Positions 2,761 through 38,105 of a DNA stretch of 64,000 nucleotides are shown here, piece after piece. Within the stretch, counting starts at the first letter, position 1; each line of letters starts with the position of its first letter. The position numbers and the translations under genes were made by a program. Source of the DNA: Limnothrix sp. BL-A-16. Lineage in GTDB: Bacteria > Cyanobacteriota > Cyanobacteriia > CACIAM-69d. Under the pieces are notes generated by a model that did not search any database, was not told the DNA's origin, and saw only the letters and a program-made list of their open reading frames with translations. Location of the stretch: assembly GCA_041937175.2 (NCBI GenBank), contig CP166615.1, positions 4,160,001 through 4,224,000 of the forward strand, read 5' to 3'.

Positions 2761-3891
2761 CTAGAGGCGCAGGGCGATATGGTTGTCGATGCGCGCGATC
2801 GAGCCGTCGGGGCCGATCGCCCCAAATTGTTGACAGTAGTCCCGCACGATCGGGGGCAATTGCTGAAACTCAAAGAGCGTGTCCCCATTGGCCACATCGG
2901 CCCAGAAATTCCGCAACTGAGGAGCCAGCAAGAGCGCTTCGTCTTGCGATAGCCCCAAACCGCCATACATCAGCATTTTCAACATAAACGGCGGACTTCG
3001 ATCGCCCATCCACTGTCGAGAAAGGGCGGGCAAATCTTCCCAGCCGGGAACGGACTTCACGCGGCCCGATTCCACCTCCAACCAAGGATGACCCGCGCGA
3101 TCGCGCCGCAAAGTTACCAGGCGGAAGGGGTGGGGATAGCTGACCAAGGAGCCGGTGGTGATGTCATAGAGTCCGTCAGCTTCGGCAATGTCCTGCACAT
3201 GGAGATGGCCCGTAAAAACTAACTGGATCCCGGCCGATCGTAGCTTTTGGCGCAATTCGATCGCGTTTTGGAGCATGTAACGACGGCCCAGGGGGTGAGT
3301 CGCCTGTTCCGGCAAATGCTCCACCACGTTGTGATGCACCATCACCAGGGTCAGATCCTGCGGGTTGAGCTGGGCAAGGGTGCGATCGAGCCAGGCCATT
3401 TGCTCCGCATCGATCGCCCCAACAATCTCCTTGCCATCCTCGGAAAGTTGATTGGAATTCAGACCAATCAGTTTCAGACCGGGCAGTAGTTCCCGGATGT
3501 AATAGGGCTGCTGGGAATCCCCATAGCCAAAGTCCTGATACAGCGCCACAAACTCCGGCAAAGTCGTGATGCGGGGGTAGCTCGATTGGGCAGGAAAATC
3601 ATGGTTGCCCGGAACCACATAAACCGGATAGGGCAACTGTTTCAGCCGTTGTACCAGCCATTGATGATTTTCTGGTTCGCCATGTTGCGTCAGGTCACCG
3701 GGCAACAACAGGAAGTCTAAATTCAGTTGCTCCAGTCGCTCCAGGATTTGCTCCAGGGCCGGAATCGCCACCTCCACCAAGTGAAATCGACTCGGATGGT
3801 CCCAAACCGTGTGGGGCAAAGCGACATGTAAATCGCTGATGACGGCAAAGCGGCAGGGGCGATCGGGCCACGGGGCGATCGAGGAGGACAT
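2761..3891 (-). CDS. Calcineurin-like metallophosphoesterase
   Basis: SDLH, GDLT, GNHD, HH and GHLH metal-binding motifs in order. Confidence 0.9.
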   Translation of the reverse strand: MSSSIAPWPDRPCRFAVISDLHVALPHTVWDHPSRFHLVEVAIPALEQILERLEQLNLDFLLLPGDLTQHGEPENHQWLVQRLKQLPYPVYVVPGNHDFPAQSSYPRITTLPEFVALYQDFGYGDSQQPYYIRELLPGLKLIGLNSNQLSEDGKEIVGAIDAEQMAWLDRTLAQLNPQDLTLVMVHHNVVEHLPEQATHPLGRRYMLQNAIELRQKLRSAGIQLVFTGHLHVQDIAEADGLYDITTGSLVSYPHPFRLVTLRRDRAGHPWLEVESGRVKSVPGWEDLPALSRQWMGDRSPPFMLKMLMYGGLGLSQDEALLLAPQLRNFWADVANGDTLFEFQQLPPIVRDYCQQFGAIGPDGSIARIDNHIALRL

Positions 3892-5779: not shown

Positions 5780-6958
5780 ATGTTGGCATCAGACGAGAGT
5801 TGTAGGGGCGTGGAATCGACGATCGATTTATTGCAGCGGGAGTTGCGGTCAGGAACGACGGCTCCAGAGGCGGTTTGTGCAGCGGTGGCCGATCGAATTG
5901 CGGCAGAAGTCGATCGCATCTGTACTGAAAGTCGTCGGATCCAGTCTTCCGGGGATGTGTTGGGTTGGGCCCACAGCCTGGCTCGTCACCGATTGCAACA
6001 GAATTTGCGCTATTACCAGTTGGGATCCCAACGCGGCCGAGCCGAGTTGCACAGTACCCTCAGTGCCATCATTTACCGATACATTTCCCCAGCCCGATCG
6101 CGCACGAGCTATCAAGCGCGGCTGTTGGCGATCGAGGATTTCCTCCAGGGATTTTATGTGGAAGCGCTAGGGGCTTTTCGGCGCGAAAACCAGTTGCCCC
6201 CAGACTATACCCCTCGGGTACGGCTGGAGTTGGCGGAATATATGGCGTTTGTGGAGCGCTACGCCAAGCGCCGGATTCCGTTGCCCGGTGGGCGATCGCA
6301 GCAGTTGATTGTGTTGCGGGCCCAAACCTTTGCCCGTCAACAGCCCCCGGAAACCTCAATCGACATGGATCAGGCCGCCGAAAGCGCCAGTGATAGCGGT
6401 GAGGGCTACTCCTGGGATGATGCATCGGTGCAGCAAGTGCGCGATCGAATCAGCGCCAAGGAATCCACCGATGTGATGGATGGGGCCCTGCGCCAGGCGG
6501 TTGTGGATGAATTAATTGCTTACCTGCGCGATCGTAACCAAGAGGAATGCGTTAACTATTTGGTGCTGCGATTAAAAGACTTATCCGCCAGCGAGATTGA
6601 GAAAGTCTTGGGTCTGGATGCCCGCCAGCGCGATTACTTACAACAGCGTTTTAAATATCACCTCATTCGCTTTGCTTTGCTCCACCGTTGGGAATTGGTT
6701 CACCAGTGGCTTGATGTGGATTTGGAGCGCGATTTAGGCTTAACCCCTCGTCAATGGGAAAGTTTGCTCAATCAACTGGGCCCGGAAATTACCAAATTGG
6801 TGGAGCTAAAACGCGCGGGATCAGATGATCGAACCGTGGCCCAAGCGATGGGGATCAGCGCTTCTCAAGTGCAAAAGCTATGGTTCAAGTTGCTGGAAAC
6901 CGCTTGGGAAATTCGTAATCGCACAGAGTCCGGAACGAGGAGGGGGACAGATGAATAG
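5780..6958 (+). CDS. hetZ: HetZ-family regulator
   Basis: LRYYQLGSQRGRAELHSTLSAIIYRYI, IEDFLQGFY, QRDYLQQRFKYHLIRFALLHRWELVH and a C-terminal HTH-like segment match HetZ as recalled; start placed at the first ATG. Confidence 0.88.
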   Translation: MLASDESCRGVESTIDLLQRELRSGTTAPEAVCAAVADRIAAEVDRICTESRRIQSSGDVLGWAHSLARHRLQQNLRYYQLGSQRGRAELHSTLSAIIYRYISPARSRTSYQARLLAIEDFLQGFYVEALGAFRRENQLPPDYTPRVRLELAEYMAFVERYAKRRIPLPGGRSQQLIVLRAQTFARQQPPETSIDMDQAAESASDSGEGYSWDDASVQQVRDRISAKESTDVMDGALRQAVVDELIAYLRDRNQEECVNYLVLRLKDLSASEIEKVLGLDARQRDYLQQRFKYHLIRFALLHRWELVHQWLDVDLERDLGLTPRQWESLLNQLGPEITKLVELKRAGSDDRTVAQAMGISASQVQKLWFKLLETAWEIRNRTESGTRRGTDE

Positions 6959-8599: not shown

Positions 8600-8700
8600 A
8601 TCGTTTACCCGAGCCTTGGGTTTGAGTCTCAACACTGAAACCTTTGACTCTCAAAAAAAAGTCAACACAGCCACTAAATACAACTGATCGATCGCTGATA

Positions 8701-8727
8701 AAACAAGGGGCTTTTGCTCCTTGTTTT
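8701..8727 (+). terminator. Probable terminator after nfuA
   Basis: AAAACAAGGGGC-TTTT-GCTCCTTGTTTT hairpin, which also resembles the dispersed palindrome. Confidence 0.6.
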
Positions 8728-9099
8728 CTTATTTGATTGTTCTGTTGTGAATTGTTTTCTATGAATTTTCTTGTTTGTTCTCTTTGAATCTTGTTTAGCC
8801 CCCAGCGAGAGTTATTGTCTATTGAAAAATATCTAATTAATAGCTCAAGAAATTTAAAAACTTACGTATACGGGTCGAATTTGATTCGCATTTCTTTGAT
8901 TTGGGAATTTTGACTCACAAATAAAAATCTTCACGAAAACGTGAATAATAGTTGCTCTTGACCTTGATTCTTATTGGAAAAGAGAGATCAAAATTCCAGA
9001 AATCTAGAAGCCCAAAAATACAAAAATCTAGCCATCTAAAAACTAAAATCAGACAATAAAAATGTTACCGAAATACTTTCAGTAAAAGAGTTTAAATAT

Positions 9100-32370: not shown

Positions 32371-32571
32371 ATCGTCCATTCCCGCTCATCGTCCTGATTT
32401 CGGCCCTGAGCATCCGGTTCTAGACCGCTACCCGATCGCCGGCCTCGTTAAGATAGAAGGCCCCAAGCGGCGGTTCGCGAACCAAAAGTCGGGCCCTGTC
32501 GTCAATTGGCGTTAGAGTAGCCACAATGCGCGATCAACCGTCGCTTTCTACTGTTGTTGAGTTTCGTTGGT

Positions 32572-34410
32572 ATGGTTCAGCAATTGCCCGATCGTCCCCT
32601 GCCCGCCGCCGACCAGGTTGATAAAATCACCCTGCCGAAAACTAGCGAATCGGAAACGCTGAAGAAAATTCGCCACACCACTTCCCATGTGATGGCCATG
32701 GCGGTGCAGCGCTTGTTTCCCAAGGCCCAAGTGACGATCGGCCCCTGGATCGAAAACGGCTTTTACTACGATTTTGATAGCCCTGAACCCTTCAGTGAAG
32801 AGGCGTTGAAGGCGATCAAAAAAGAGATGATCAAAATCATCAACAAAAAGCTGCCGGTGATTCGCGAAGAGGTGTCCCGCGAGGAAGCCAAGCGCCGAAT
32901 TGAGGCGATCGGGGAACCCTACAAACTGGAAATTCTCGACGACATCAAAACCGAGCCAATCACGATCTATCACCTGGGCGATCAGTGGTGGGATCTTTGC
33001 GCCGGGCCCCACTTGGAAAACACCTCGGAAATTAACCCCAAGGCGATCGAATTGGAAACGGTGGCCGGAGCCTATTGGCGCGGTGATGCCACCAAGGCCC
33101 AGCTCCAACGGATCTATGGCACGGCCTGGGAAAGCCCCGAGCAACTGACCGAATATAAACGCCGCAAGGAAGAAGCCCTCAAGCGCGATCACCGCAAACT
33201 GGGCAAAGACCTGGGGCTGTTTATCTTCGCCGATCCCGTCGGGCCCGGCTTGCCCCTCTGGACTCCCAAGGGCACGATGCTGCGATCGATCCTGGAGGAC
33301 TTCCTCAAAGGCGAACAGGTGAAACGTGGCTACTTGCCCGTGGTCACGCCCCACATTGCCCGGGTGGATTTGTTCAAAACCTCCGGCCACTGGCAAAAAT
33401 ACAAGGAAGACATGTTCCCGATGATGGCCGAGTCGCCGGACGAGGCGGCCGCCGAATTGGGCTTTGTGCTGAAGCCGATGAACTGCCCCTTCCACATCCA
33501 AATCTTTAAGAGCCAGTTGCGATCGTACCGAGAGCTGCCGATGCGCCTGGCGGAATTTGGCACAGTCTATCGCTACGAGCAGTCCGGCGAGCTGGGCGGC
33601 CTAACAAGGGTACGCGGCTTCACGGTGGATGACTCCCACCTATTCGTGGCTCCCGAGCAACTCGACGCGGAATTTCTGAAGGTGGTGGATCTGATCCTGA
33701 CGGTGTTCAGGGCGCTGCAACTGAAAAACTTCAAAGCGCGCCTTAGCTTCCGCGATCCCGACTCCGACAAGTACATCGGCTCCGATGAGGCCTGGAACAA
33801 GGCCCAAAACGCCATTCGATCGGCCGTGCAAACTCTGGGCATGAGTTCCTTTGAAGCCCCCGGCGAAGCGGCCTTCTACGGGCCCAAGCTGGACTTTATT
33901 TTCCAAGATGCCCTGGAGCGCGAGTGGCAACTGGGGACGGTGCAGGTGGATTACAACCTGCCGGAGCGCTTCGATTTGGAATATGTGGCGGCCGATGGCA
34001 GCCGCCAGCGGCCGGTGATGATCCACCGGGCCCCCTTCGGCTCGATCGAGCGGCTGGTGGGCATCCTGATCGAAGAATATGCCGGAGATTTCCCCTTCTG
34101 GTTGGCTCCGGAGCAAATTCGGCTGTTGCCCGTGGGCGACAACTTCCGCGACTATGCCGATCGAGTCGTGGAGCAACTGCAAATGGCGGGCATTCGGGCC
34201 ACGGTGGATGGTTCGGGCGATCGGCTGGGCAAAATTGTCCGCAACGCCGAAAAGGAAAAAATCCCCGTGATGGCCGTGGTCGGTGAAAAAGAATTGGAAA
34301 CCAACAGCCTCAGCCTTCGCACCCGGGCTGACGGCGACTTGGGATCGGTGACGGTGGCCACCACGATCGAACGGGCCACGGCCGCCAACCGCGATCGCGC
34401 TGCCTTCTAA
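32572..34410 (+). CDS. thrS: Threonine--tRNA ligase
   Basis: IRHTTSHVMA, DLCAGPH, RDHRKLG, KPMNCP, YRYEQSG, AAFYGPK, HRAPFGSIER. Confidence 0.98.
   Translation: MVQQLPDRPLPAADQVDKITLPKTSESETLKKIRHTTSHVMAMAVQRLFPKAQVTIGPWIENGFYYDFDSPEPFSEEALKAIKKEMIKIINKKLPVIREEVSREEAKRRIEAIGEPYKLEILDDIKTEPITIYHLGDQWWDLCAGPHLENTSEINPKAIELETVAGAYWRGDATKAQLQRIYGTAWESPEQLTEYKRRKEEALKRDHRKLGKDLGLFIFADPVGPGLPLWTPKGTMLRSILEDFLKGEQVKRGYLPVVTPHIARVDLFKTSGHWQKYKEDMFPMMAESPDEAAAELGFVLKPMNCPFHIQIFKSQLRSYRELPMRLAEFGTVYRYEQSGELGGLTRVRGFTVDDSHLFVAPEQLDAEFLKVVDLILTVFRALQLKNFKARLSFRDPDSDKYIGSDEAWNKAQNAIRSAVQTLGMSSFEAPGEAAFYGPKLDFIFQDALEREWQLGTVQVDYNLPERFDLEYVAADGSRQRPVMIHRAPFGSIERLVGILIEEYAGDFPFWLAPEQIRLLPVGDNFRDYADRVVEQLQMAGIRATVDGSGDRLGKIVRNAEKEKIPVMAVVGEKELETNSLSLRTRADGDLGSVTVATTIERATAANRDRAAF
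34339..34398. repeat. Direct repeat, left copy (attL-like, in the thrS 3' end)
   Basis: 59/60 identical to 36630-36689. Confidence 0.93.
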
Positions 34411-34526
34411 AGCATCTTGCACCTCAGGAATTGAGCGAAAGCTCTGAGTGTTGCTAGCGAGTGACTCATTAAACTTTGTCCTAGCTAGCAACGCTCTTTG
34501 CAAATCTCAAAAAGAATTTTGAAGCA

Positions 34527-35894
34527 ATGAATACTCTGCAATTAGATCGATTTTCAACTAAGCAGCGATCAGAATCATCAGGAATTAGTAGAGTAGCAAT
34601 TCAAGGCTATAAATCGATCTTTAATCAATGCTCAATTGATCTTAGCTATTTAACTGTGATTGCAGGATCTAATAGTTCTGGCAAATCCAGCCTGTTTCAG
34701 CCATTATTAATCCTTAAACAGACTCTTGAGTCTCCGTTTGATCCTGGCAGCTTATTGATCAATGGTGATTCTGTCAATATTACTTCCTTGGATCAATTGT
34801 TGTCTCATGTTCCTGATCACAGACGAAATCGCAATTTAATTATTGAGCTTGAACTTCATTTAGAGAAATCAGTTAGGCTTACGTTCTCTGAAAAGCAGAA
34901 AAAACAAGGACTAAAAATCATTGAATCCTGTTATGAAGTAAAAGATTCAGAGAAGGTTTTTGTCTTAAAGAAGGAACTATCTCAAGAGCATCTTGTTGAT
35001 CTTATGCAAAATATGATTGAAGATCGATTTGGTGATGCTGCACCTCTTATAGAAGTTTTGAAGAAATATTCAATAAACCCATTAATTGAAGGAAGTTGCT
35101 TCTTTGACTTGGGATTGACGACACCACAGTTATCACTTTCAATAGGTCTTTTTAATGATTATGCAAATGAAGTTCGACGTATTATCCATGTTTCAGGAAT
35201 TCGAAGAAACCCAGAGAGAACATATCAAAAAACAGCAATAGGTCCAGAATTTAGTGGCGCTTTTGACAAATATGTAGCTAGCGTGATCCTTGCCTGGAAA
35301 ACCGAGCAAAAATCAAAATTTAAGCAACTTAATGAAGATCTTGCTGAATTGGGCTTGACTTGGAAGATTGATGCTAGACAGTTGGATGACTCGCAATTGG
35401 AGTTGCTAGTTGGTCGCGGCCCTACCCATGGCTCAAGCAGGAATAAGAAGCACAAACCCAGTGATACCGTCAACATTGCAGATGTTGGGTTTGGAGTTTC
35501 ACAGGTTTTACCTGTCTTGGTAGCATTATTGGTTGCAGAGCCAGGGCAGCTTGTCTATATTGAGCAACCCGAAATTCATTTACATCCCAAAGCACAAGTG
35601 GCTTTAGCTAAGCTGTTAGTCCGAGCTGCACTTCGGAAAGTTCGGGTCGTTGTCGAAACCCACAGCTCTATCCTGCTACTAGCAATTCAATCATTAGTTG
35701 CTGAAGGGGAACTACCACCTTCAGACACATACCTTCATTGGGTTAGTCGTGATCCTGAAGGTATTACCGAAGTGAGTAGCCAGCAACTTGATGAAACTGG
35801 TGCTTTTGGTGACTGGCCCGAAGACTTTGCAGATACTATGTTAGATCTTAATAGTCGCTACCTAGATGCCGTGGAAAACACAATATTTGGCTGA
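34527..35894 (+). CDS. ABC/SMC-type ATPase (AAA_15/AAA_21-like, DUF3696-like C-terminus)
   Basis: IQGYKS, Walker A GSNSSGKS, signature VGFGVSQVLP, Walker B YIEQPEIHLHP, H-loop ETHS, C-terminal WPEDF. Confidence 0.88.
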   Translation: MNTLQLDRFSTKQRSESSGISRVAIQGYKSIFNQCSIDLSYLTVIAGSNSSGKSSLFQPLLILKQTLESPFDPGSLLINGDSVNITSLDQLLSHVPDHRRNRNLIIELELHLEKSVRLTFSEKQKKQGLKIIESCYEVKDSEKVFVLKKELSQEHLVDLMQNMIEDRFGDAAPLIEVLKKYSINPLIEGSCFFDLGLTTPQLSLSIGLFNDYANEVRRIIHVSGIRRNPERTYQKTAIGPEFSGAFDKYVASVILAWKTEQKSKFKQLNEDLAELGLTWKIDARQLDDSQLELLVGRGPTHGSSRNKKHKPSDTVNIADVGFGVSQVLPVLVALLVAEPGQLVYIEQPEIHLHPKAQVALAKLLVRAALRKVRVVVETHSSILLLAIQSLVAEGELPPSDTYLHWVSRDPEGITEVSSQQLDETGAFGDWPEDFADTMLDLNSRYLDAVENTIFG

Positions 35895-35925
35895 GGACTT
35901 ATCCAGAAAAATACAAAGAACTGAA

Positions 35926-36513
35926 ATGAGCAAAAAAACTGGAAAGAGCCTAGTAATCGATGCTTGCATTGCGCGATCTGCTAGCGAAACCAATCATCCT
36001 ATCTCTAGTGCATGTCGAGAATGCCTTAAATCAATTCTGAAACATTCGCACCGCATGGTTATAACAAAAGAAATTTCTCGAGAATGGAGAAAGCATCAAT
36101 CACCATTTGCTCAAGAGTGGCTCAAGACGATGTTTCAAAGAAAAAGACTTCATAGTCTTAAGCCTTCCCAAGTTGAAAACATAGATGGATTGATGGATTT
36201 TATTGACACTTTAGAATTTCAGAAAGAGAGAGAGGATGCTTATAAAGATATACATCTCATAGAAGCAGCCATAGCTTCTGACAAGAGGATTATTTCATCG
36301 GATGAGAAAACAGCACGAAAGTTTTTCAGCGCTGCGACTGAGACTGTTCCTATCATTGGAGATATCCTGTGGGCTAACCCAGTGAAGCCTGAAGAATCAG
36401 TAGCAGATTGGATCGCTCAAGGCACTCCACTGGAACCCGAGAGAACGCTTAAAGCATTTCGACAACGATCGAAAACTGCCCAAGGCTCAAGCTCGCCTGA
36501 GAGAATTGGATAG
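35926..36513 (+). CDS. PIN-domain-like protein (putative nuclease)
   Basis: N-terminal strand LVIDACI, later E(W), KDIHLIEAA and IISSDE; the acidic residue spacing is PIN-like. Confidence 0.65.
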   Translation: MSKKTGKSLVIDACIARSASETNHPISSACRECLKSILKHSHRMVITKEISREWRKHQSPFAQEWLKTMFQRKRLHSLKPSQVENIDGLMDFIDTLEFQKEREDAYKDIHLIEAAIASDKRIISSDEKTARKFFSAATETVPIIGDILWANPVKPEESVADWIAQGTPLEPERTLKAFRQRSKTAQGSSSPERIG

Positions 36514-36629
36514 AGTATTTGTCACTTCCATGTCTATCAGATTTACGATATTGCCCAATTTTCATGAATAATTGTGGCTGGTGAATTTTAATCTTTGTTG
36601 TTTTCGCTGTAAGCCAGCTACAAGGGATT

Positions 36630-36689
36630 TTGGGGTCGGTGACGGTGGCCACCACGATCGAACGGGCCACGGCCGCCAACCGCGATCGC
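36630..36689. repeat. Direct repeat, right copy (attR-like, displaced thrS 3' end)
   Basis: Reads LGSVTVATTIERATAANRDR then TDF-stop (TAG 36699-36701) in the same register as thrS. Confidence 0.93.
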
Positions 36690-36877
36690 ACCGATTTTTA
36701 GAGTTCAGGGCAGCGCCAGCCCAGAAAAGCTCTAGCCTAGGGAGGTGGAAACGGCCGATCGTGCCCCTGTCCCCGATCGGGGATGTGCCTAGGTTGCCCA
36801 TTGCCCCATCCTCGATCGTCCAACGGCTCAATAGTTCCCCATCAAGTCCCCATCACAAGTACCGCTTGAACTTTGCG

Positions 36878-37366
36878 ATGAAACTTCAATCCACAATTGC
36901 AGCGATCGCCCTGGGTTTACCGCTGCTGCTGACCCCCACCGCTGCCCAAGCCAACGAATACGATCGCTGTGTGCGCGACCTGCGCGACTCCAACATCAGC
37001 CCCGACCTGATCGCTAGCTCCTGTGCCTATGTGCTCCACCCCGAGGATTTGGGCGACTGCGTGGAGCGAATTGACGAAAAAACCACCATCTCAGCGGAAG
37101 CGGCCCTCAGAACCTGTCGGCAAGCGCGCCGCCCGATCGACACCGCCAACTGTGTGGTCAGCATCTCGCGGGCCGGAGCCGTTGACGGCAGCGCCGTTTT
37201 GGAGCACTGTCGCCGCAGTCTGCTGCCCGAACGGTTTGCCCGCTGTGTTACCACCCTGAATCGCCAGGTGACCAGTGACCTGACCACCGCCATGGGCCAA
37301 TGCATTGACGGGCGCGATCGCCCCCGTGACATGTATCCCGAATATCCCGGGCGATCGGGCAACTGA
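36878..37366 (+). CDS. Secreted cysteine-repeat hypothetical protein
   Basis: Signal peptide MKLQSTIAAIALGLPLLLTPTAAQA; 8 Cys in ~31-aa repeats. Confidence 0.8.
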   Translation: MKLQSTIAAIALGLPLLLTPTAAQANEYDRCVRDLRDSNISPDLIASSCAYVLHPEDLGDCVERIDEKTTISAEAALRTCRQARRPIDTANCVVSISRAGAVDGSAVLEHCRRSLLPERFARCVTTLNRQVTSDLTTAMGQCIDGRDRPRDMYPEYPGRSGN

Positions 37367-37706: not shown

Positions 37707-38105
37707 CTACTCGCTGCGGCCCACCAATTTGGGAATCGGTGGCGCAACGGGCAACAGGTTGGCATCCTTGGTGACAATGTGGCCCACGTAGAAAGCTCCC
37801 GCTTCAATGTTCAGGGCGCTAACCACCACATCCCCCTCCAGGCGTGAGGTGCGCGTTAGGGTCAGACTCCCTTCGGCCACAATACTGGCCTTCACTGTGC
37901 CGTGAATGATGATGTTGCCGGCTTTGACCTCGGGCCCTTCGATCGAGCCAGTCGCCGAAATCTCCAAATCCCCATTCACTTCCACCGTGCCCCGCACCGC
38001 ACCATCAACCCGTAAACCGCCCTGGACTCTTAAGTTTCCTTGAAAATCACTTCCCTCAGCCAGATAGGTCACTGACGGCATTAGTTTTTTGCTACGTCCA
38101 AACAT
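37707..38105 (-). CDS. Bactofilin (polymer-forming cytoskeletal protein)
   Basis: TYLAEGSDFQGNL...LRVDG.V.G.V...I.G.V.A...LEGDV....L.IE.GA.Y.G beta-helix pattern. Confidence 0.9.
   Translation of the reverse strand: MFGRSKKLMPSVTYLAEGSDFQGNLRVQGGLRVDGAVRGTVEVNGDLEISATGSIEGPEVKAGNIIIHGTVKASIVAEGSLTLTRTSRLEGDVVVSALNIEAGAFYVGHIVTKDANLLPVAPPIPKLVGRSE

Follow-up and report, generated by a model that had tools for sequence, protein, structure and literature searches.

What function is served by a small, compositionally foreign islet of two genes lying behind the threonyl-tRNA synthetase gene of a cyanobacterium? The islet is found in a 64,000-nucleotide (nt) stretch of DNA from Limnothrix sp. BL-A-16 (contig CP166615.1, positions 4,160,001 to 4,224,000), hereafter the window, and carries a gene for a soluble ATP-binding cassette (ABC) ATPase followed by a gene for a small protein with PIN-like motifs. 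An earlier note on the window had taken the pair for a candidate undescribed anti-phage or toxin system. We favor, at a probability of about 0.7, a two-gene anti-phage system of the abortive-infection type, built to the design of an ABC ATPase joined to a PIN nuclease.

Two genes on a low-GC islet

Two same-strand open reading frames (ORFs) occupy the islet, at 34527-35894 (+, 455 residues) and 35866-36513 (+, 215 residues). The upstream ATG of the second, at 35866, yields the 215-residue form; an internal ATG at 35926, 31 nt past the ATPase stop codon, yields a protein of 195 residues, and it is to this start that the N-termini of the protein family align. The GC content is 0.34-0.45 over 34500-36500, against 0.58-0.62 in both flanks, and neither a further ORF family nor a membrane partner was found within the islet in the ORF list and a Pfam scan. 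ORFs, composition and Pfam matches thus agree with the earlier description of a low-GC islet whose sole cargo is the ATPase and, 31 nt on, the 195-residue protein. The two genes are as follows.

34527..35894, + strand: proposed sensor/regulator, a soluble ABC ATPase of the Rad50/SMC/OLD type that ends in a DUF3696 tail (Pfam, PADLOC, AlphaFold2, Foldseek)
35926..36513, + strand: 195-residue PIN-fold protein, proposed RNase effector (AlphaFold2, VIA-align, family alignment)

The small protein is modelled as a PIN domain with conserved acidic residues

The AlphaFold2 model of the 195-residue protein (predicted local distance difference test score, pLDDT, 95.4; predicted template modelling score, pTM, 0.89) consists of one PIN domain and short C-terminal helices. 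When the model was compared with 48,161 PDB chains by VIA-align, the top match was the toxin VapC21 (5sv2_A; Z 9.2, root-mean-square deviation 3.3, 128 of 135 residues aligned); the six chains at Z>=8 were all VapC/VapBC entries or archaeal hypothetical proteins, and among the best 24 rows 15 were titled VapC/VapBC or PIN/PilT-N-terminus and none named another fold. VapC toxins, at Z 9.2 to 7.8, are accordingly its best structural matches. Foldseek returned no PDB match at E<=0.001, though PIN entries stood among its top rows, and nothing clear among the viral structures of BFVD; the assignment is made because of VIA-align, Foldseek alone being weak. On this model we assign the PIN fold with confidence, which bears out the proposal of a PIN-like protein, for which a fold comparison had been named as the check.

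The acidic motifs first noticed in the sequence are present: VIDAC at residues 10-14, KDIHLIEAA at 107-115 and ISSDE at 122-126. D12, E53, D108, A115 and S124 do not vary across 59 aligned family sequences, and the conservation of D126 is 90% or more. In the model D12 follows β1, E53 lies in the helix after β2, D108 in the helix before β4, and D126 after β4; PIN domains canonically carry their catalytic residues at these four secondary-structure positions. Judged by this alignment, the putative catalytic set D12-E53-D108-D126 is intact.

Family models scarcely reach this protein. It has no match in Pfam or in the defence-model library scanned here, PADLOC v2.0.0 (2023), at E<=1, and the VapC model of NCBIfam, TIGR00028, matches it at an E value of only 0.13. 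One family member (P0198) matches Pfam PIN_3 at 2.1e-5, with 25.7 bits against a cut-off of 27. A profile of the family run against the PDB gave a best E of 0.03, to unrelated proteins, with Nob1 at 0.12 and ZC3H12 at 1.4. The family is large: a word-index search with the protein found nine relatives, and an exhaustive search found 1872 representative clusters at E<=0.001, of which 1193 at E<=1e-10, the representatives being clustered at 50% identity. The best 150 of the 1872 are mostly 160-196 residues long (overall 123-209). Their source names read "hypothetical protein" or, once, "PIN domain-containing protein", and neighbours in the atlas are labelled "hypothetical" or "putative PIN domain-containing". 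Taxa in the source names include Nostocaceae, Anabaena, Deltaproteobacteria and Paenibacillus, and the source names and atlas labels together extend the family to Deltaproteobacteria, Paenibacillus, Pseudomonadota and Bacteroidota. No paper on this PIN family was found in a literature search, which does not exclude that one exists, and the available part of a review of lactococcal Abi systems makes no mention of ATPase-PIN pairs.

The ATPase resembles defence-type ABC ATPases

Pfam places the larger protein in AAA_15 (7.5e-27) and AAA_21 (2.2e-25). A DUF3696 tail at residues 396-438 scores 21.1 bits, just below the cut-off of 22, and the same domain is matched in 34 of 39 members of the ATPase family (E<=0.01). 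The AlphaFold2 model (pLDDT 83.4, pTM 0.86) retrieves with Foldseek the heads of Rad50 and SMC proteins together with the defence ATPases PtuA (9nnb, 8eea) and GajA (8u7i), at E values of 7.5e-13 to 3e-9; by sequence, the family profile finds in the PDB only 9n69 (1.1e-5) and an OLD nuclease (3.5e-5). Among PADLOC models the best are NsnB (192.8 bits), HEC-03B (150.6), PDC-M55A (135.6) and AriA (98.6), and no NCBIfam model comes near its cut-off. Sequence and model together support membership in the defence-type ABC ATPases, and the PADLOC matches and the Foldseek hits to PtuA and GajA uphold the likeness to PARIS and Septu that had been drawn earlier. The PADLOC search, which had been suggested as a check on novelty, gave a divided answer: the ATPase is matched by NsnB and HEC-03B below family level, and the PIN protein by nothing.

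The ATPase had also been described as having all motifs intact, which holds in part. Across 39 aligned family members neither Walker A (G47..G52-K53-S54-S55) nor the H-loop (E377-T-H379-S) varies; Walker B, by contrast, has the form hhhh-E346-Q347-P-E349 instead of D-E-P-E, and the signature motif reads D319-V-G-x-G-x-S-Q. The replacement of DE by EQ suggests that nucleotide binding may matter more than fast turnover.

The two genes form a conserved unit

Of 401 cyanobacterial genomes sampled, 16 carry the PIN family, and 14 of these loci were examined. In 11 the PIN protein is near full length; in ten of the 11 the ATPase gene immediately precedes the PIN gene on the same strand, adjoining or overlapping it, and the eleventh (L029) stops at a contig edge. 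The three remaining loci are decayed: one retains a 38-residue ATPase remnant and a PIN gene with a TGA stop (L031), one only a PIN fragment with a TAG stop (L032), and one an intact ATPase followed by the last ~67 residues of the PIN protein (L033). The same gene order recurs intact in a Latescibacterota genome (L034; 44% and 38% identity), whose second locus (L035) is broken, its PIN gene split by ~1 kb of inserted DNA. Among IMG/VR contigs, nine loci carry strong relatives of the ATPase, and the PIN gene follows directly in eight, the ninth being truncated where its contig ends. A tenth locus, with a distantly related ATPase, lacks a PIN gene of this kind. No third gene is conserved across the 14 loci. 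The two genes are therefore a conserved unit, in the order ATPase then PIN, across distant phyla and predicted phage contigs.

A search of genome contigs with a single window protein as query returned no match. The predicted ATPase:PIN complex at 1:1, built from the pair's own alignments, scored 0.08 against a mark of 0.32 and gives no verdict.

The module is mobile and often lies among defence genes

A PADLOC scan of 96 neighbouring ORFs at 13 loci found strong defence neighbours at five. In the Latescibacterota locus HmaA lies directly upstream (573 bits), with PDC-M50A, PDC-S09, PDC-S02 and Ppl close by; HmaB is a neighbour at L030 (9.4e-77); L027 has PD-T4-6, PDC-M24B, a PD-T4-2_A/NsnA-like gene and a PtuA-like gene; L033 has DarG, PDC-S32 and a PtuA-like gene; and L023 has NERD-UvrD and a TPR protein. 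Matches to mad2 and PDC-M37B at L021 and to pVip at L026 were set aside as generic domains (a methyltransferase and ClpC, and a MoaA-like radical-SAM protein, respectively). At five of seven scanned phage loci the pair has a late transcriptional activator and a small recombinase on one side and HNH/terminase genes on the other; at a sixth, a tape-measure gene is close by. The module is horizontally mobile, and is often placed among defence genes and in prophages.

Several of these loci have a repeat structure of their own. At L034 the ATPase-PIN pair is flanked by direct repeats of ~100-190 nt, 71-98% identical (3452-3823, 6601-6811 and 8663-8919); the next cassette, a nucleotidyltransferase with a DUF1016 fragment, is likewise bounded by such repeats, and a 95-nt piece of the 3' end of the HmaA ORF is repeated 5.4 kb downstream (83%). 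The locus has the look of several cassettes stacked one after another where hmaA ends, comparable to the thrS site described below. In L027 and L028, from one Nostocales-type genus, the pair lies near leuS, is accompanied by a small gene of the HTH_17 (excisionase) type, and is bounded by a shared 41-93-nt repeat containing a hairpin (L028: 2492-2532 and 5663-5703; L027: 2296-2388, 4692-4722 and 4977-5069). The same repeat in L027 separates off a neighbouring cassette of a PtuA-like gene and a 318-residue protein, and the site may be a hotspot of repeat-delimited defence cassettes. This second pair, a PtuA-like AAA_15 ATPase (379-396 residues) and a 318-residue protein without a Pfam or PADLOC match, recurs beside the ATPase-PIN module (L027, 2522-4683; L033, 5320-7430) and may be another uncharacterised ATPase-effector system.

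HEC-03 has the same design in a different family

The closest characterised relative is HEC-03 (Hma-embedded candidate 03; Payne et al. 2024 preprint, bioRxiv 10.1101/2024.01.29.577857). In the available part of the preprint it is described as an ABC ATPase with a VapC-like PIN protein, found embedded in Hma systems, which lowers plaquing and needs both genes to do so. The window pair has the same layout, an ABC ATPase of ~455 residues followed by a small VapC-like PIN protein, and at six of six cyanobacterial HEC-03 loci the ATPase gene is likewise upstream. The EQPE form of Walker B and the signature DVGFGVSQ are common to the HEC-03 ATPases and the window family, and both occur beside Hma genes, as far as the available text on HEC-03 goes.

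At the level of sequence the two are well separated. HEC-03 ATPases are 26-36% identical to the window ATPase (tblastn), and their PADLOC model (PDLC04148) gives the window ATPase 150.6 bits in two stretches and three of its relatives 134-137, whereas genuine members score 289-535. The PIN model (PDLC04147) finds true members in 11 of the 401 cyanobacterial genomes (E<=0.01, and in five E<=1e-34), yet matches none of the 59 window PIN family members (E<=1) and nothing in the whole Limnothrix genome at E<=10. When the window PIN family was aligned by hhalign with six true HEC-03 PIN proteins, the probability was 21.6%, over the first 52 N-terminal columns. One genome (G116) carries a genuine HEC-03 pair and a window-family pair on different contigs (L025 and L036), which argues against redundancy of the two families. 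HEC-03 has been put to an in vivo test, whereas the window family is known from sequence and models only.

Menshen has a similar ATPase and a PIN-fold partner

Menshen (Li et al., Nucleic Acids Research 2025, PMC12065111) is proposed, in the available part of that paper, to consist of a sensor NsnA, a transducer NsnB and an adaptor NsnC, the last an inactive PIN domain fused to a toxin. In 23 of the 24 Menshen systems modelled there with AlphaFold 3, the PIN-like domain of NsnC is placed between a pair of DUF3696 tails from NsnB (PMC12065111), and NsnB too departs from the canonical motifs, with EN for DE and GxG for SGG (PMC12065111). The window ATPase and NsnB are thus alike in their DUF3696 tail, variant Walker B and GxG signature, NsnB being the top PADLOC model of the window ATPase (192.8 bits), and in both systems, on the available description of Menshen, the partner is PIN-fold, there predicted to be clamped by the DUF3696 tails.

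The differences are in the remaining parts. Menshen has NsnA, a ParB-DUF262 protein with ParBDB; the islet has none, no third gene is conserved at the 14 loci, and the two DUF262 (PF03235) genes of the genome lie at 3.75 Mb and 4.32 Mb, against 4.16-4.22 Mb for the window. The PIN domain of NsnC is described in the available text as inactive and bears a C-terminal toxin, whereas the window PIN protein keeps D-E-D-D and, at 195 residues, has no extra domain. Genuine NsnB proteins score 348-438 bits and have NsnA directly upstream in all five genomes checked; the score of the window ATPase falls instead in the 174-224 tier common to HEC-03 ATPases, which score ~218 with the NsnB model, the window ATPase and three relatives scoring 192-203.

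A profile of the window ATPase family scores its own members at 483-735 bits and the HEC-03 and NsnB ATPases at 124-178. A quick maximum-likelihood tree of 55 ATPases, with two PtuA-like outgroups and the truncated L037 excluded, recovered three groups, NsnB (30 rows, approximate likelihood ratio support, SH-aLRT, 99), HEC-03 (5, 97) and the window family (18, 88), whose branching order it leaves unresolved. By this tree the window ATPase is placed in a clade of its own beside HEC-03 and NsnB.

Earlier use of the word "undescribed" has to be divided accordingly. The design is already known, from HEC-03 and from the NsnB-NsnC core of Menshen as given in the available parts of those papers; the family, judged by its sequences, is new, with a separate ATPase clade and a large unnamed PIN family that lacks a Pfam or PADLOC v2.0.0 model.

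PARIS, Septu and VapBC are more distant

PARIS (AriA with the TOPRIM protein AriB) and Septu and retron Ec78 (PtuA with the HNH protein PtuB) likewise join an ABC ATPase sensor to a separate nuclease effector. The window ATPase matches the AriA and PtuA models generically (1.6e-28 and 6e-9), has the DUF3696 tail, and is related to them by sequence at the level of the superfamily only; its effector is a PIN protein in place of TOPRIM or HNH, and PADLOC finds neither an AriB nor a PtuB match for the 195-residue protein. VapC has the fold and catalytic residue pattern of the window PIN protein. VapBC modules, however, have a small VapB antitoxin, whereas the only gene adjacent to the window PIN gene is that of the 455-residue ATPase, and the window PIN protein is ~40-60 residues longer than the matched VapC chains and has in addition a conserved helix region, W-x3-G-A, at its C-terminus.

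The islet is an insertion at the 3' end of thrS

The gene upstream of the islet encodes, as the earlier note had held, a tRNA synthetase, here threonyl-tRNA synthetase (phmmer against the PDB: 1nyq_A, E 2.6e-165), and the ATPase gene starts 116 nt downstream of it on the same strand. A 74-nt direct repeat of the thrS 3' end brackets both genes; its two copies are 91% identical and spaced 2291 nt apart, with a central core of ~52-60 nt that is identical between them. The elements of the site are as follows.

32554..34410, + strand: thrS, the integration target, its last codons from inserted DNA (ORF; phmmer 1nyq_A, E 2.6e-165)
34339..34412, + strand: direct repeat copy 1 (attL-like), serving as the present 3' end of thrS (74-nt repeat)
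34413..36629, no strand: interior of the inserted low-GC islet (GC, G402 comparison, unitigs)
34446..34496, + strand: stem-loop inside the inserted DNA (inverted repeat, RNA fold)
36630..36703, + strand: direct repeat copy 2 (attR-like), the original 3' end of thrS, displaced and no longer coding (repeat, G402)

In a congener (G402), whose flanks are 93-95% identical to those of the window, the thrS 3' end is joined straight to the downstream flank with a single repeat copy, an empty site. The distal end of repeat copy 2 and the DNA beyond it match the G402 thrS end and downstream flank, and the last codons of the window thrS now come from the inserted DNA: the protein ends in RDRAAF*, whereas both the displaced copy and G402 read RDRT(D/N)F*. 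The insertion measures 2291 bp, its exact ends being ambiguous within the identical repeat core. In the public run X1 the islet forms a single 2291-nt unitig and the repeat a 60-nt unitig at ~2x depth. The PIN family is missing from both congeners and from one further genome of the same taxonomic family, while the same query finds the window's own copy (4.5e-67). The islet is foreign DNA inserted at the end of thrS. It encodes no integrase gene, and there is no tRNA gene in the 64-kb window; the arrangement looks like the product of site-specific integration, the element having either lost its own recombinase or been mobilised in trans.

Between the thrS stop codon and the ATPase start lies a stem-loop (34446-34496; inverted repeat I5, with 16-nt arms that are 88% complementary), and the RNA of 34405-34530 folds at -39.6 kcal/mol (z -3.44), as well as which none of 200 shuffles fold. 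The stem-loop may be a terminator or an insulator. A consensus terminator scan did not call it, its loop being longer than the scan permits and its T-run weak, and the promoter and terminator consensus scan as a whole was uninformative (three promoter-like sites against 4.5 expected, no terminators). Three raw RNA sequencing runs under the same species label have no reads on the stretch and provide no measure of expression.

The placement behind a tRNA synthetase had been thought to allow co-expression. A functional coupling of this kind is not supported, in view of the absence of the insertion from the congener, the varied contexts and orientations of the module elsewhere and the strong intervening stem-loop; given the empty site, thrS is an integration site, and its proximity is no sign of co-function.

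The octamer GCGATCGC, which we take to be the HIP1 palindrome typical of cyanobacteria, recurs in the sequence, including within the att-like repeat core (34370-34400). Downstream of the islet lie a 264-residue ORF without a Pfam match (36572-37366), the N-terminal part of which overlaps the displaced thrS end, so that its true start is probably later, and a bactofilin gene on the minus strand (37707-38105; PF04519, 2.5e-23).

Weighing of the explanations

For the favored defence system a mechanism may be sketched on the pattern of HEC-03, of the NsnB-NsnC complex predicted for Menshen, and of PARIS and Septu, whose complexes have been solved. Oligomers of the ATPase would grip the PIN protein by the DUF3696 tails at their C-termini and silence it; a trigger derived from the phage would be read by variable insert regions of the ATPase; and the binding or hydrolysis of ATP would then free or activate the PIN protein, which, as a Mg2+-dependent RNase, would cut tRNA, rRNA or mRNA, so that translation halts and the phage cycle is not completed.

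Several points weigh against a defence system. Neither the PIN protein nor the ATPase has a family-level score in PADLOC or NCBIfam, so the proposed role rests on analogy and context. The position of the Walker B catalytic glutamate is occupied by glutamine, and hydrolysis may therefore be weak or absent. Eight of the 13 scanned loci have no convincing defence neighbour within ~5 kb and lie among ordinary genes. Finally, several copies are decayed (L031, L032, L033 and L035), as would suit a dispensable defence gene or a costly toxin alike.

The best of the competing explanations, to which we give a small but real share of the probability, is a toxin-antitoxin or addiction module in which the PIN protein is the toxin, the ATPase is the antitoxin, and the pair serves chiefly to stabilise the mobile element that carries it. 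The closest folds are indeed VapC toxins, the module is carried by prophages and by an islet without an integrase, and some decayed copies retain one intact partner, such as L033 with its whole ATPase and truncated PIN protein; the Pfam name of AAA_21, "putative AbiEii toxin, Type IV TA system", points the same way but is a family label only. There is, however, no small DNA-binding antitoxin of the VapB type, a 455-residue ABC ATPase would be an unusual antitoxin, and HEC-03, the closest characterised relative, was scored as a phage defence needing both genes, according to the available part of the preprint. Toxin-antitoxin action and abortive infection are not mutually exclusive, moreover, and the choice between them is partly a matter of emphasis.

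It is improbable that the module serves the prophage or element itself and not the host, as a host-takeover RNase, as a superinfection control limited to kin, or as a counter-defence. The nine viral contigs with strong ATPase relatives, and the accessory slot by the terminase that the pair occupies at five of the seven scanned phage loci, are what such a role would lead one to expect, but prophage accessory slots commonly carry defence genes, and the pair is also found on chromosomes without phage genes, among housekeeping genes, and in or beside Hma loci.

Even less credit can be given to a PIN protein that is a non-catalytic adaptor in the manner of NsnC, with the effector encoded elsewhere or the ATPase acting alone. 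The PIN-like domain of NsnC is predicted only to dock on NsnB in the available part of the Menshen paper (PMC12065111), and the window ATPase shares the DUF3696 tail on which it docks; yet D-E-D-D is conserved in 59 window-family sequences, whereas the inactive PIN domains of Menshen are described there as lacking these residues, the 195-residue protein has no C-terminal effector domain, and no third gene is conserved. A housekeeping role in RNA processing or tRNA metabolism coupled to thrS, suggested by the common strand and the 116-nt spacing, is close to refuted by the absence of the module from both congeners, with an empty site in one, its presence in only 16 of 401 cyanobacterial genomes, its unrelated neighbours at other loci, its foreign GC content and the stem-loop between thrS and the ATPase gene.

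Within the favored reading of an anti-phage system a wider history can be imagined, which we offer tentatively and would sooner doubt than accept. Pairs of an ATPase and an intact PIN protein, as in the window family and HEC-03, might be the ancestral core of the whole clade of DUF3696-ATPase defences, from which Menshen would be derived by the gain of the NsnA sensor and of a fused C-terminal toxin, its PIN domain then decaying to a docking domain. The window family would be a third widespread lineage (~1,900 clusters at 50% identity), distinct in its trigger and in the RNA it attacks, invisible to PADLOC v2.0.0, and spreading as an integrase-less cassette into the 3' ends of conserved genes, which it would rebuild, such as thrS here and hmaA in the Latescibacterota genome.

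Implications

If the pair is active, a large unannotated family would join the class of phage defences made of an ABC ATPase and a nuclease. Because its PIN protein keeps the catalytic residues, the pair would offer a simpler case than Menshen in which to learn how a PIN-fold partner is held back and let go by an ATPase with a DUF3696 tail. The insertion at thrS, together with the congener that has the empty site, is a natural strain pair for the effect of such a cassette. Activity would also mean that a sister of HEC-03 escapes the PADLOC v2.0.0 models, which would bear on how many defence systems are counted in cyanobacteria, whose blooms are shaped by phage pressure.

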